64,000 bases of DNA from Escherichia phage vB_Eco_OMNI12: the sequence record OL362041.1; one strand, 5' to 3'. Of this stretch, positions 9,017 through 38,262 are shown piece after piece. Numbering within the stretch: position 1 is the stretch's first letter; each line of letters starts with the position of its first letter. The notes under the pieces are model-generated. The model had not been told where the DNA came from and did no database searches. It worked only from the letters and a program-made list of their open reading frames with translations. The translations under genes were made by a program, and so were the position numbers.

Positions 9017-9340
9017 TTAATCTTCTATGATATCTCTATCATATCCAAGTGAAATGAGAGTTTCTTTGAAGTGTTTAATGTTCTTTTGTCTAGAATCATT
9101 AATGAAAATGACTGGATAACGAATGTTAAGAGATGTGAATCCAGCGCGTTTAGCAAGAGATACAATCAGCGGACGATCATACTCAATCTTACCATTATTT
9201 GTAAGAACTTTATAGAAAGTAAAAGGAGCATTGAGCTCCTTTAGAAGTTTTGTAACTGATTGACATCCAGGACAACGACCTACTTCATCTGGAATTCCAT
9301 AGACTTCAATCTTATTCTTTAAGTTCGAGTTTTGTTCCAC
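9017..9340 (-). CDS. nrdH: glutaredoxin-like NrdH
   Basis: CPGC redox motif; ORF-track ATG start lies far upstream in a hydrophobic extension; GTG at 9340-9338 with AAGGAA upstream proposed as start (uncertain). Confidence 0.6.
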   Translation of the reverse strand: MEQNSNLKNKIEVYGIPDEVGRCPGCQSVTKLLKELNAPFTFYKVLTNNGKIEYDRPLIVSLAKRAGFTSLNIRYPVIFINDSRQKNIKHFKETLISLGYDRDIIED

Positions 9341-32401: not shown

Positions 32402-32546
32402 TTTGTTCTCTCTAGGTTTGGGCCATTCCATGGCGCATGAATTGTCCATTTCTGTATTTACCCATTACCGCACTTGGGCTCGACCTTATTACAGGTTGGC
32501 GGGAATCCCTCACAGAATCATGAGGTCCAGGTTATTCCCATGTTAT

Positions 32547-32963
32547 TTAAATGTAAATATTTTTGCCGTAATACTTATACCAGTGTGGCTTCATTAAAAT
32601 TTTTTCATCGAGTCGTTGTTGACTCAACTTAATAGCTGATTTGCATGGATTATAATCATTTTTTCATTCTACTGGAATATCGCTGATGTCAGGAACTTCA
32701 GTATCTTTTATACTGAACCCGCGTTTTAAGCATTCCGTTATAATGTCCGATTGACGCTTTCGCAAAAATTCTAACTTATCGTAAAAGAAAGTAACATGAC
32801 CAGAACCTAAAATAAATTTAGAAGATATTTTAAAATCTTTAACGCGCTTACCGTTTGCCACATGCTTACGAACTATACCAAAAACACGCGGCAATTCACG
32901 GTATTCTGCGATTAAATGTTGATCAGCAAGTTCAGATACTAAAGTCAAATTAATACGAGTCAT
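32547..32963 (-). pseudogene. denV: denV (pyrimidine-dimer glycosylase, endonuclease V) interrupted by in-frame TGA
   Basis: 99-codon ORF ends at TGA (32666-32664); same frame continues 38 codons ending WYKYYGKNIYI, collinear with remembered T4 endo V (138 aa). Confidence 0.7.
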
Positions 32964-33022: not shown

Positions 33023-33553
<531 letters not shown>

Positions 33554-34009
33554 TTAAAAGAGGTTGTTCATTATTCGGTAAAGTGAAGGACCCATCACAT
33601 ATTGCCACTGAGTACGAGGAATAAGAGCAAAAGCATCCATCTCTGGAATCATAACGCCATCTTTATTTTCAAAATAAGACTCACAATAGCAATTTCTGAA
33701 CATCTCATGCTCTACTGGAATCGTATAATAAAATAACTGTAAGTCTTTATTACTAGAATATTTAAATACACCTAGGTCTTCTAGAAGGTCTGGATTATAA
33801 TTGCTAAAACCAGTCTCTTCTAAGCATTCTCTTCGTGCTGCATCTAGTGCGCTTAAATCAGAATTTTCTACGCGGCCCTTTGGAATATCCCAACGATGTG
33901 CCATCATTCCAGGCTTACGAGAACCAGTAACCCGACCCATAAATAAATCTTTATCTTCTGTCATAAAGATAATACCAGCTGATAATGTTTTCATTTTAAT
34001 TTCCTGCAT
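33554..34009 (-). CDS. nudE: Nudix hydrolase NudE
   Basis: 151 aa; Nudix box GRVENSDLSALDAARRECLEETGF. Confidence 0.8.
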   Translation of the reverse strand: MQEIKMKTLSAGIIFMTEDKDLFMGRVTGSRKPGMMAHRWDIPKGRVENSDLSALDAARRECLEETGFSNYNPDLLEDLGVFKYSSNKDLQLFYYTIPVEHEMFRNCYCESYFENKDGVMIPEMDAFALIPRTQWQYVMGPSLYRIMNNLF

Positions 34010-34479
34010 TCAGTGATAAAGTTATTTAAATTTTGAGCATATTTCTTTTCATCAAAAATCTTTTGTTGTCTGCGTAACCGCCATGGCATTTCAATGAACA
34101 CACACCATATTCCGGATAATATTGCTGCAGTAAAAATATTAACAAATATAGTACAAAGAGCCCAATCTCCTATTCTGTCCATTGGATTTTTTCCAAAGAA
34201 GTAAAATACGAATGATGACGCAGGAAGACTAATGATATACCACAGAAGCATATTCTTATCCGTAAACCATTCAGCGTTCGTTAACTTAGCACGACCGTTT
34301 TGAATACATACGAACTTATCATCTGTTACAGTAAATGGCTTAGCTGCTTGATATCCCATTCTAAACTCCCTAATTAATCGTTTCTTTGTATCTTCAGAAC
34401 AGCCGCTCCAGTCAACTCTATCAACTGAAATGCCATCGTCCCCATCATCTAAATCATACCAGCGAGTTTTTAAAATCAT
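33991..34479 (-). CDS. membrane protein (2 TM), tandem paralog family
   Basis: 162 aa; two hydrophobic helices; C-terminus FITECRKLK. Confidence 0.5.
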   Translation of the reverse strand: MILKTRWYDLDDGDDGISVDRVDWSGCSEDTKKRLIREFRMGYQAAKPFTVTDDKFVCIQNGRAKLTNAEWFTDKNMLLWYIISLPASSFVFYFFGKNPMDRIGDWALCTIFVNIFTAAILSGIWCVFIEMPWRLRRQQKIFDEKKYAQNLNNFITECRKLK

Positions 34480-34838
34480 TTAATTTTCCTACAATCACTC
34501 ACAAACTCTTCCATTGATTCTTTTTCAATATAAGACATGTAGTTATTATATTCTTTTAATTGTATTTTGTAATCCTTTTTTCTTTGCCAATTTATTTTAA
34601 AATTATCATAATGAAAATATAACATGGTACCAAAGAATGAAAATAATGAAATCGCTATAGTATAACAAAGCTCACTCCAAACTTCTGTTATATTTACTGT
34701 GCCGTCGATGTTTAAAATAAGACAGTCAATCATTAATCCAATAAGACTACCTGCAAGAGCTGCAAATGCTGATATGGCAAGAATTAATAGTGCCTCTGGA
34801 AACGAATATTTGACTTTATTTAGTTTTGGCTTTTGCAT
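34476..34838 (-). CDS. membrane protein (2 TM), tandem paralog family
   Basis: 120 aa; C-terminus FVSDCRKIK. Confidence 0.5.
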   Translation of the reverse strand: MQKPKLNKVKYSFPEALLILAISAFAALAGSLIGLMIDCLILNIDGTVNITEVWSELCYTIAISLFSFFGTMLYFHYDNFKINWQRKKDYKIQLKEYNNYMSYIEKESMEEFVSDCRKIK

Positions 34839-35233
34839 CGTGATTCCTTAACAAATTTCATAATTTCATTAAATTCATACGCAGCAAGTTTAAGCTGATG
34901 TTCCTTTTTAATCTTTTTACACTGAGCTTTCCATTCGCGTACGCGTTTACGATAATGTCTTCCTTGATACCAGTATCCTACCCAATTTACAGGTACTAAT
35001 AAAAATGGAACTACTAATGGAAGAATTAATACTAACAGAAATACTGCGTCTGATTCAATATCAGTAGTAACATCTATAACTATTCCAATAATCATTAGGA
35101 TTATAAATGATACAGCTGTCACAGGACCTACTAATACATCAGTAGGAATTAGCTGGCGCTTTAATTCATACTTCAACGGTTTACTTGGAAGGTATAGTGA
35201 TGGTTTTGACATATTCTCTACATTCCTTAACAA
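34820..35233 (-). CDS. membrane protein (2 TM), tandem paralog family
   Basis: 137 aa; C-terminus FVKESRCKSQN; start may be Met 8. Confidence 0.5.
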   Translation of the reverse strand: MLRNVENMSKPSLYLPSKPLKYELKRQLIPTDVLVGPVTAVSFIILMIIGIVIDVTTDIESDAVFLLVLILPLVVPFLLVPVNWVGYWYQGRHYRKRVREWKAQCKKIKKEHQLKLAAYEFNEIMKFVKESRCKSQN

Positions 35234-35795
35234 ATTTTTCTAGTAATAAATCGCTTTCAAAATTGGGATTTTCTACGAATTTATCAAAAAGATCATCAAC
35301 AATAGTTAAGATATTCTTTTTACTAAGAATACGTTTATTTTCATGCTTCGTTTCAGAATCAACTATAAGAGTAAAGAAATATTTCTTGCCCTGAAATTTT
35401 ACAGTAGTATCAATATAAAATAAATTTGACTTTTGTAAATTACGTTTAAACCATGCGTCACTTAAACTATAAACACCGAGATAATCAAAATCGTCGTTTA
35501 AATAACAAACCGTCCATTCAGGAGAAATGAAATCAGTAAATTCAACATCAAAATCACACGTCAATGAATGAATTGATTCAATACTGTTAATGAGTATTCC
35601 AGGACGTATTAAAGACTTTTTACCTCTAGAAAATCTTCCGGAAAGGCTTTCATCAGTTTCATATGAAGACCCCCAATAGTAATTACGTCCTTCTGCCATG
35701 CGTTTAAGAGCATTTAGTAATTGGTCTGGAACATCAACCTGTCTTTGGAACTCTTCAAACATTGAATTGAAATCACTTTGCATTTTCATTTTCAT
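35181..35795 (-). CDS. hypothetical protein
   Basis: 204 aa; C-terminal KFVKECREY motif shared with downstream membrane proteins. Confidence 0.5.
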   Translation of the reverse strand: MKMKMQSDFNSMFEEFQRQVDVPDQLLNALKRMAEGRNYYWGSSYETDESLSGRFSRGKKSLIRPGILINSIESIHSLTCDFDVEFTDFISPEWTVCYLNDDFDYLGVYSLSDAWFKRNLQKSNLFYIDTTVKFQGKKYFFTLIVDSETKHENKRILSKKNILTIVDDLFDKFVENPNFESDLLLEKFVKECREYVKTITIPSK

Positions 35796-35811: not shown

Positions 35812-35833
35812 ATAAGGGGCCGAAGCCCCTTAT
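35812..35833 (-). terminator. stable GC hairpin (UUCG loop) 3' of ORF 35836-36429; no U-tract
   Basis: AUAAGGGGC-UUCG-GCCCCUUAU on minus RNA. Confidence 0.4.
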
Positions 35834-35835
35834 CA

Positions 35836-36429
35836 TTATTTCAGAGAATTAATGTATTCCTGAACATCGGCAGAGGTAGTTTCAACCCCAGAAATATTAC
35901 CGTTAAAGGTTTCAACTCGAGCAAGGGTATCTTCAATATCAACCTTAGTCAGTGCTGCAATTTCAACTACATCATCAGCAGTACTAATTCCAAGGGCATT
36001 TGCTGCACGAGTTTCACGGATATATTCCAATTTAACCGCAAGTTCTTGACGAGCATCATCTAACTCAACTACTTTCTTGGCGATTTCAATTCGCATTTCA
36101 GCATAACCGTCAGCCTTAGTAGTCAACTGCTCAGCTGTTCGACGATATAGTAAACCGAGTTTAGCATGCATTGTTACATCTTGGCCTTCGGAAAGAAGTT
36201 TACGAATTTCACGCTCTTTTGATTCGGCCTGTCGATTCTTTTCGATAACAAGTTCACGAATACGTTTTTCTTCGTTAATAGATTTAACAGAAGCAGTTTT
36301 TAGATCTTTAATTTTATCAAGTAGTTTTGCTGCTGCAGCAGTATACTGTTCTTCGACAGATAGATTTTTAGCCATAGCAGAACCAAGTTTAGTGCGAATA
36401 AACTCAACAATTTTCTTCAGTGTGTTCAT
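35836..36429 (-). CDS. coiled-coil protein, hypothetical
   Basis: 197 aa; heptad-rich, alanine-rich. Confidence 0.5.
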
Positions 36430-37676: not shown

Positions 37677-37705
37677 TAAAAAGCCCCAACCTTTCGGTCG
37701 GGGCT
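37677..37705 (-). terminator. rho-independent terminator (GNRA loop)
   Basis: AGCCCCGACC-GAAA-GGUUGGGGCU followed by UUUUU. Confidence 0.75.
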
Positions 37706-38234: not shown

Positions 38235-38262
38235 AAAAAGCCCCAACCTTTCGGTCGGGGCT
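38235..38262 (-). terminator. rho-independent terminator ending tRNA/stable-RNA transcription unit
   Basis: Same hairpin as 37677-37705 followed by UUUUU. Confidence 0.75.

Follow-up and report, generated by a model that had tools for sequence, protein, structure and literature searches.

A C-terminal motif common to overlapping genes for predicted two-transmembrane proteins and a soluble neighbour at the e.2–e.5 locus of a T4-related phage

The genes e.2, e.3, e.4 and e.5 form a tandem array of overlapping reading frames in a 64,000-nucleotide stretch of Escherichia phage vB_Eco_OMNI12 (sequence record OL362041.1), which is called the window here and whose numbering is used for all coordinates. 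A preliminary description, made from the letters alone, had reported at this place a run of small two-transmembrane (TM) proteins with a common C-terminal motif, and this was borne out by the open reading frames (ORFs), by Kyte–Doolittle hydrophobicity and by motif counts. The analysis reported here shows that the motif is selected at the amino-acid level. The array genes all lie on the minus strand, and the locus contains the following features.

35836–36429, minus strand: e.6 orthologue, conserved, 197 aa, upstream of the array (ORF, PHROG); anchor for collecting related loci
35812–35833: GC-rich hairpin between e.6 and e.5, core GGGGCTTCGGCCCC on the coding strand
35181–35795, minus strand: e.5 (Y06P), 204 aa, soluble, head of the coupled chain (ORF; PHROG 2607, E = 9e-110); FVKECR coded at 35217–35234
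34820–35212, minus strand: e.4 (Y06O), 130 aa, ending in MKFVKESRCKSQN and the stop (FVKESRCKSQN) (ORF); motif coded at 34838–34855
34476–34838, minus strand: e.3 (Y06N), 120 aa, ending in EEFVSDCRKIK and the stop (ORF; PHROG 2330, E = 2e-58); motif coded at 34488–34505
33991–34479, minus strand: e.2 (Y06M), 162 aa, ending in NNFITECRKLK and the stop (ORF); motif coded at 34003–34020
33554–34009, minus strand: nudE (Nudix hydrolase), last gene of the coupled chain (Pfam NUDIX, E = 1.5e-13)
33023–33517, minus strand: lysozyme gene e (T4/Paracelsus annotation)

The window is that of a Tequatrovirus. The region 33.5–36.5 kb shared 98% DNA identity with Escherichia phage Paracelsus and about 94% with T4-type records, and 497 of the 518 matching phage genomes covered it almost completely. 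Comparison with the T4 e.x ORFs, which the preliminary description had proposed, confirmed the array genes as orthologues of T4 e.2, e.3, e.4 and e.5 (UniProt Y06M, Y06N, Y06O and Y06P): synteny with T4 held gene for gene over e.2–e.6, and gene order, neighbours (nudE, e and e.6), position between e.6 and nudE/e, strand and overlapping frames were all conserved relative to the T4 and Paracelsus annotations. Furthermore, PHROG models supported every gene assignment (E = 1e-56 to 1e-110; PHROG 2203, 2330, 2604 and 2607 for the e.2–e.5 set, E = 3e-76 to 9e-110), and the window proteins showed 79–99% identity to hundreds of Tequatrovirus entries. Public databases place e.2–e.5 in separate function-unassigned families, the Pfam families precomputed for homologues of e.2, e.4 and e.5 being PF26896 (Phage_T4_Y06M), PF26873 (Phage_T4_Y06O) and PF26876 (Phage_T4_Y06P), respectively. 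Scans of the array proteins with a local Pfam-A copy, NCBIfam and PADLOC gave no meaningful family match; among the PADLOC anti-phage defence and effector profiles, a generic 4TM effector model alone was hit, by e.4 with 13 bits (E = 0.0085). A PDB sequence search with e.5 returned no match, and the shared tail motif had no record in the libraries searched. In GenBank/PGAP-derived records, homologues of e.3 and e.4 variously bear the label ‘sulfurtransferase’ or ‘DNA primase’, and ‘host specificity protein’ is given to a neighbour; none of the family searches made here supports these names.

The genes e.5–e.4–e.3–e.2–nudE constitute an early-transcribed, translationally coupled chain, with overlaps of 32 nt (e.5/e.4), 19 nt (e.4/e.3) and 4 nt (e.3/e.2, ATGA). 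The translations and C-termini given earlier were reproduced. The start of e.4 is the ATG at 35212, which T4 and all homologues also use and which gives 130 aa; the 137-aa version that the ORF listing extends to a TTG at 35233 is an over-extension. The 204-aa upstream protein had been said to end in KFVKECREY; the motif is present (EKFVKECREY), but nine residues follow, which places it eleven residues before the stop. The start of nudE is probably the second ATG at 33994 (146 aa, in an ATGA overlap with the e.2 stop) and not the T4-style ATG at 34009 (151 aa). The upstream ATG is missing from T2-type phages (PP01 annotation and sequence), and NudE of other genera starts with MK(E/T)LSAGI.

Two Kyte–Doolittle hydrophobic segments were found in each of e.2, e.3 and e.4, and none in e.5. 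In e.4, TM1 (about residues 27–46) is followed by an acidic loop (47–56), TM2 (57–77) and a basic helical tail (78–130). The corresponding segments of e.3 are TM1 at about 15–41, loop at 42–54, TM2 at 55–75 and tail at 76–120, and e.2 begins with a 75-residue cytoplasmic N-domain followed by TM1 (76–96), TM2 (105–129) and tail (130–162). The three proteins contain 4–13 lysine and arginine residues ahead of TM1, 0–2 in the loop and 9–15 past TM2; because of this distribution and the positive-inside rule, the topology prediction that had been called for yielded inner-membrane helical hairpins with both termini in the cytoplasm (N-in/C-in). TM2 is predicted to be prolonged as a basic cytoplasmic helix of 35–55 residues with the motif at its end. 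The common architecture thus comprises a short basic N-terminus (with the extra domain in e.2), two TM segments joined by a loop that is acidic or neutral, and a basic, helical tail with the motif.

An AlphaFold2 model of e.4, with a predicted local distance difference test score (pLDDT) of 76, showed a helix at 24–49, a turn, and an uninterrupted helix at 54–129 that combines TM2 with a cytoplasmic stretch of about 50 residues up to the motif. The model of e.2 was poor (pLDDT 50), with helices at 69–96 and 99–161 and the same secondary structure as in e.4. A Foldseek search of the e.4 model against the BFVD viral models returned orthologues only, the sole holin match being non-significant (E = 1.8). 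The T4 reference e.2 (NC_000866, 67471–67970) contains two frameshifts (frame 0, 2, 0), and its annotated 102-aa product stops just past TM1; sequence coding for ...FITECRKLK persists in the 160-nt ‘intergenic’ gap before nudE. The window e.2 is intact.

Within the window, the motif is confined to the e.2–e.5 cluster. The pattern F[IV]x[ED][CS]R, which was defined after inspection of the data, gave five matches in the six-frame translation of the window versus 0.32 expected from shuffles, and four of the five are the C-termini of e.2–e.5. The fifth, FINDSR (about 9037–9106, minus strand), is 23 residues short of the stop in an ORF of 150 residues (counted from stop to stop), has no Cys, and is probably due to chance. 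With the stricter pattern [FW][IVL]xxC[RK] at most 14 residues from the stop, only e.2, e.3 and e.5 were recovered among the 162 window ORFs, and none of 128 ORFs in T4 1–50 kb matched. Alignment on the Phe gave the extended consensus hydrophobic-x-x-F-[I/V]-K-E-C-R, in which position −3 is hydrophobic in 87% of instances; Trp replaces Phe in five, and the motif usually stands 1–11 residues from the stop. With the spacing i, i+3, i+4, i+7, the hydrophobic residue, F, I and C come to share a single helix face (pattern a-d-e-a'). A reading of the motif as a prohead-protease site, with cleavage at I/L-x-E, was dropped, since Glu occupies position 4 in only about half of the instances and the carriers include membrane proteins.

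The spread of the motif was assessed in 25 related loci, 21 from viral contigs anchored on e.6 together with the annotated records of T4, PP01, AlbertHofmann and JS10. They sample seven phage groups, six from Tevenvirinae (Tequatrovirus, Mosigvirus, Dhakavirus, Jiaodavirus (KPV15), Mosugukvirus (Pectobacterium phage PM2) and an Enterobacter phage CIP9-like group) plus Marfavirus (Klebsiella phage Marfa), and their ORFs were called by a first-ATG, greedy non-overlap rule. Among 281 ORFs between e.6 and the lysozyme gene, a relaxed form of the motif occurred in the last 16 residues of 59 of the 75 TM ORFs versus 20 of the 206 non-TM ORFs. In every related locus, the gene directly after e.6 codes for a soluble protein of the e.5 type that has the motif close to its C-terminus, and these proteins are mutually homologous; in phages CIP9, Marfa, PM2 and KPV15, the array begins with such a motif-bearing e.5 homologue. 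Moreover, one to six small two-TM proteins encoded between e.6 and nudE end in the motif in each locus. A second tandem array was observed in the same interval of the Mosigvirus, Dhakavirus, Marfavirus, CIP9-like and PM2 loci (L004 2867–3661; L005 2348–3592; also L010–L024). Its members, three to five in number, are small soluble proteins of 61–118 aa that all end in W-[V/I]-S-S-S-x-x-C before the stop, and the window lacks this array.

At the junctions between the array genes, the motif codons coincide with the translation signals of the next gene, in the following repeats.

35222–35237, minus strand: copy 2 of the 16-mer AAATTTGTTAAGGAAT, coding for K-F-V-K-E of e.5; AAGGAA 10 nt before the e.4 ATG
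34843–34858, minus strand: copy 1 of the 16-mer AAATTTGTTAAGGAAT (coding strand), coding for K-F-V-K-E of e.4; AAGGAA 5 nt before the e.3 ATG
34476–34493, minus strand: e.3/e.2 junction TGTAGGAAAATTAAATGA, coding for C-R-K-I-K and the stop of e.3; Shine–Dalgarno (SD) sequence AGGAAA and the e.2 ATG in the ATGA overlap
33991–34008, minus strand: e.2/nudE junction TGCAGGAAATTAAAATGA, a direct repeat of the e.3/e.2 junction

The repeat had been described as a 15-mer at 34843 and 35221. It is real, but it is 16 nt long, its second copy begins one position later, and there is no third exact copy in the 64 kb; the assignment of its AAGGAA as the ribosome-binding site (RBS) of the next gene was correct at both places. 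As RNA (AAAUUUGUUAAGGAAU) the 16-mer agrees at 12 of 15 positions with AAAAUUGUUAUGUAA, the RegA consensus from systematic evolution of ligands by exponential enrichment, a likeness set aside because the repeat is exact only twice and is not conserved outside Tequatrovirus and Mosigvirus. Two near-repeats of 16 nt that lie within TM segments were put down to chance.

The earlier observation that motif conservation partly coincides with the repeat and RBS was thus confirmed, and it raises the possibility that the motif is a DNA-level by-product of tight packing, in which the last codons of one gene supply the SD and start of the next, sometimes in two reading frames, and neither a protein role nor shared ancestry is needed. 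Consistent with this, AAGGAA or AGGAAA lies inside the motif 5–10 nt before the next ATG at all four window junctions, and synonymous changes are absent from the motif region of e.4, which overlaps e.3. In addition, C-R-K-stop joined to an AAATGA start/stop overlap is the most frequent ending in the loci as a whole (14 distinct cases); it shows that RBS and protein constraints have been made compatible. However, the SD sits at different motif positions from gene to gene, on K-E in e.4 and e.5 and on R-K in e.2 and e.3, and F, I/V and C fall outside any SD. In 59 distinct motif DNAs from the seven groups, Arg was encoded by AGA (21), AGG (14), CGT (14), CGC (5), CGA (2) and CGG (1), so that both codon families are used, including the SD-unlike CGT and CGC; Cys was encoded by TGC (26) and TGT (22), and Phe by TTT (44) and TTC (10). 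Measured from the Cys codon, the ATG of the next gene lies at −1 to +37 nt, or at 67–378 nt in some instances, and the motif is retained with the next start 16–37, 67–88 or 378 nt away. Furthermore, despite tight packing and overlaps, the motif occurs in none of the other 159 window ORFs and in none of the 128 T4 ORFs, and it is tied to TM proteins (59/75 versus 20/206). Among Tequatrovirus e.2 genes, the motif shows six synonymous differences and no non-synonymous one. Since all six Arg codons and both Cys codons are in use, the motif is selected as protein and is not an RBS by-product; the RBS overlap is real but secondary. Codon usage led us to reject an explanation by RBS alone, which is largely refuted and which we regard as very improbable.

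Rates of change along the proteins were consistent with selection on the tail. In orthologue alignments, the N-terminus and tail were nearly invariant, and substitutions and indels were carried by TM1 and the loop; mean pairwise identity was 0.57–0.66 in the e.3 loop and in TM1 and loop of e.4, versus 0.89–0.98 in tails and motifs. The ratio of non-synonymous to synonymous substitution rates (dN/dS, Nei–Gojobori; seven Tequatrovirus sequences, four for e.2) was 0.12–0.18 in the cytoplasmic parts versus 0.45–0.80 in TM1–loop–TM2, with similar dS. These values show strong purifying selection on the cytoplasmic parts and non-synonymous change that is 4–5-fold faster in TM1–loop–TM2.

The array varies in gene content, and the motif-coding repeats act as recombination breakpoints that remove or fuse cassettes. 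In the T2-type phages (PP01 and locus L006), e.2 is absent, and e.3 has the e.2-type end CRKLK and is joined to the second ATG of nudE via TGCAGGAAATTAAAATGA. Because five of the six other phage groups sampled have an e.2-like gene ahead of nudE, either immediately or separated from it by one small ORF, this state represents loss of e.2 by deletion between the junction repeats 34476–34493 and 33991–34008. In Escherichia phage vB_EcoM-UFV05 (OP555981.1, L028 2501–2821), e.3 is deleted and an in-frame hybrid of the e.4 N-terminus with the C-terminal half of e.2 is present on five contigs; it is joined inside TM1 at an S-F microhomology and keeps the two-TM layout and both neighbour overlaps. Moreover, the presence of e.4 varies among Dhakavirus-type loci (L005, L011–L018).

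Such events could mean that the tail-coding repeat is mainly a recombination linker, kept because unrelated cassettes can thereby be exchanged, acquired and lost in the hyperplastic region without any need for the proteins to be related or to have a common partner, a coding analogue of the promoter-early stem-loops (PeSLs), intergenic elements through which modules are shuffled within the hyperplastic regions of T4-like phages (PMC4122927). The breakpoints of the T2-type deletion fall within the 18-nt junction repeats and yield the hybrid CRKLK end, and the tail is found on membrane and soluble proteins alike. In addition, the e.3/e.2 and e.2/nudE junctions are alike over about 60 nt; DNA similarity extends some 40 nt downstream of the repeat and takes in GCTGGTAT inside the unrelated nudE, and PeSL-mediated shuffling is documented in these phages (PMC4122927). 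The array repeats resemble PeSLs as short repeats at cassette boundaries in a hyperplastic region that match indel breakpoints, but PeSLs are intergenic promoter/terminator composites conserved as DNA, whereas the array repeats are coding and conserved as amino acids. Across genera the motif DNA is not conserved, so the repeat cannot provide recombination homology between distant phages; purifying selection acts on the residues, and the motif always lies at the end of a long helix past TM2, which points to a structural role. The linker activity is best regarded as a secondary effect by which the array is shaped and not as the reason for the motif, and that it should be the main role is quite improbable. 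The PeSL paper makes no mention of e.2–e.5 (PMC4122927), and promoter-like sites were not enriched in the array region (24 versus 23.8 expected). Elsewhere in the window, two identical 24-nt GC-rich hairpins (AGCCCCGACCGAAAGGTTGGGGCT) with a T run (38239–38262 and 37682–37705, minus strand; 557 nt apart) flank a 187-aa ORF and recall PeSL-type terminators.

Paralogy of the membrane proteins was assessed by Smith–Waterman alignment with the motif masked, using z-scores from a block shuffle that keeps local hydrophobicity; these were preferred to the E-values of the small all-against-all searches, because the latter are relative to tiny databases. Adjacent genes of PM2 were related by this measure (8371/8702, z = 5.8; 12796/13181, z = 5.2), and so were PM2 12796 and the window e.2 (z = 6.4). 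KPV15 8539 and Marfa 8205 (z = 4.6) join e.2-type and e.4-type cores. In addition, e.3 and e.4 share an N-terminal M-x-K-P. Alignment of cross-genus profiles with hhalign gave unmasked probabilities of 65–95% overall (e.3–e.4 79%, e.2–e.3 86%, e.2–c6 95%, e.2–c8 86%), and the matches reached 34–85 columns into the tail. After removal of the last 10–12 residues or so, the scores were within those of reversed-profile controls (maximum 28.6), with e.2–c6 (30.5) as the sole exception. Pairwise BLASTP of the window trio gave nothing significant, only a 14-residue tail match between e.2 and e.3, and hhalign on Tequatrovirus-only alignments was too shallow to help (effective number of sequences, Neff, 1.2–1.8).

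Expression data from T4 bear on the possible functions of the array. Time-resolved omics classed the e.2–e.6 transcripts as early and detected all of the proteins, e.4 and e.5 as early, e.2 and e.6 as middle and e.3 as late (PMC9697503, supplements 4 and 6). In a screen by CRISPR interference through antisense RNA targeting (CRISPRi-ART) on T4, knock-down of e.2–e.6 was scored ‘Not Fit’, with prior essentiality given as UNKNOWN (PMC11879866, supplement 15). Together, the RNA, protein and knock-down data indicate that the genes are real, expressed, early and dispensable in the laboratory.

The earlier suggestion of lysis-timing factors (holin, antiholin or pinholin-like) did not fare well against these data. 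The predicted layout resembles that of class II holins such as S21 of phage 21, which likewise have two TM segments, N-in/C-in topology, a charged C-terminal cytoplasmic tail and an endolysin gene nearby, and the array lies about 0.5–2.3 kb upstream of the endolysin gene e. However, class II holins are expressed only late, and a holin made as early as the e.2–e.5 transcripts and the e.4 and e.5 proteins of T4 would kill the cell; knock-down was without fitness effect, no holin family was matched in Pfam, PHROGs or NCBIfam, and the only holin in the fold search was the non-significant one mentioned above. The T4 holin is T, which is unrelated to e.2–e.5, and the genes t, rI and rIII account for both lysis and lysis inhibition in T4. 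Lysis timing is thus disfavoured because expression is early and knock-down has no effect; the holin reading was rejected on the timing of the T4 RNA, which is early and not late with the endolysin, and hardly any credence is left for it.

The proteins may instead be superinfection-exclusion or immunity factors of the Imm type, that is, early inner-membrane proteins that block the entry of later phage DNA with a variable loop that tracks competitors. Like T4 Imm, an early, small and dispensable inner-membrane protein with two hydrophobic helices, e.2–e.4 are early, small, dispensable two-TM proteins; their periplasmic loop and TM1 are the most variable parts, and copy number differs between related phages. 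However, Imm has neither a long basic helical tail nor an F-I-K-E-C-R end, and BLASTP of e.2, e.3 and e.4 against T4 Imm, Sp, 47.1, 55.8 and gp40 showed no similarity (best E = 3.4). Moreover, conservation is strongest in the cytoplasmic parts, for which a blocker of entry has no obvious need, and dN/dS is below 1. An Imm-type function is distinctly unlikely.

We favour, as slightly likelier to be right than wrong, a reading in which a paralogous set of two-TM proteins and e.5 are united by a selected C-terminal tail that serves as a docking or oligomerization module on fast-evolving accessory membrane proteins. The membrane members would be ancient, heavily diverged tandem paralogues, and the array would grow and shrink through recombination at the conserved tail-coding repeats. 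Through the tail, every member, e.5 among them, would be drawn to a common partner or to the other members; the a-d-e-a' pattern suggests this, as it aligns the hydrophobic residue with F, I and C along a single side of the helix, with a core-like Cys. The variable membrane and periplasmic face may then carry specificity. Most speculatively, the proteins may have an accessory role in membrane-level conflict, excluding competing phages or evading an envelope-linked host defence, and not in lysis.

Several points weigh against this reading. The window trio, with the motif masked, gave z = 1.7, −1.0 and 0.5, none of the proteins being detectably related to another, and an exhaustive search with an e.4-profile hidden Markov model of 1.8 billion representatives returned only seven cluster representatives, with no bridge to other families. 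The shallow family alignments (Neff about 1.2–2.2) limit positive and negative profile results alike. The tail may instead have been gained convergently as a short sequence, or tail DNA may have been exchanged between unrelated genes. The relaxed motif was defined post hoc, on ORFs called by a simple first-ATG rule. In e.4, Ser or Ile stands where Cys is usual and the Cys comes two residues further on; the position of the Cys is thus not strictly fixed. For the membrane part, a dN/dS below 1 fits relaxed constraint, which is common for TM helices, as well as it fits diversifying selection. Finally, the docking or oligomerization role and the conflict role are ones that we infer only. By the refuting condition set in the preliminary description itself, its proposed tandem duplication failed the motif-masked test for the window trio, although it gained from the shared architecture and from the PM2 neighbours. 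Ancient tandem duplication is a plausible and the likeliest origin, unproven for this trio; e.2, e.3 and e.4 may represent one old, fast-diverging family, judged in the window from architecture, motif and analogy and not from significant alignment.

A more specific form of the docking-tail reading can be proposed, in which the F-I-K-E-C-R helix end is an assembly tag: e.5 and the variable set of two-TM proteins, together with the paralogues of the latter in other genera, would zip via their cytoplasmic tails into an early membrane complex, possibly with a shared Cys metal or redox site, and the membrane and periplasmic face would be swapped cassette-wise at the tag-coding repeats. We consider this form unlikely as it stands, though worth stating.

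Two further observations were made beside the array. In denV (32450–32963), an in-frame stop is present at codon 100, after which the same frame runs on to the normal DenV C-terminus; T4 DenV has 138 aa. The genes ipII and ipIII, which lie between denV and e in T4, are absent from the window.

T4 is the best-studied large lytic phage, yet e.2–e.5 are listed as unknown in functional-genomics tables of 2025. A shared, selected cytoplasmic tail makes these four orphan genes, which have counterparts in at least seven T4-related groups, one testable module, and the array is a concrete case in which repeats within coding sequence serve, in a hyperplastic region, as the breakpoints of cassettes. In practice the stakes are moderate; the genes are dispensable in the laboratory, and any role is likely to show only in phage competition or on hosts with particular defences. 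If the assembly-tag proposal is true, the e.2–e.5 proteins would form a modular, evolvable phage membrane device for the exclusion of competitors or the evasion of host envelope defences.

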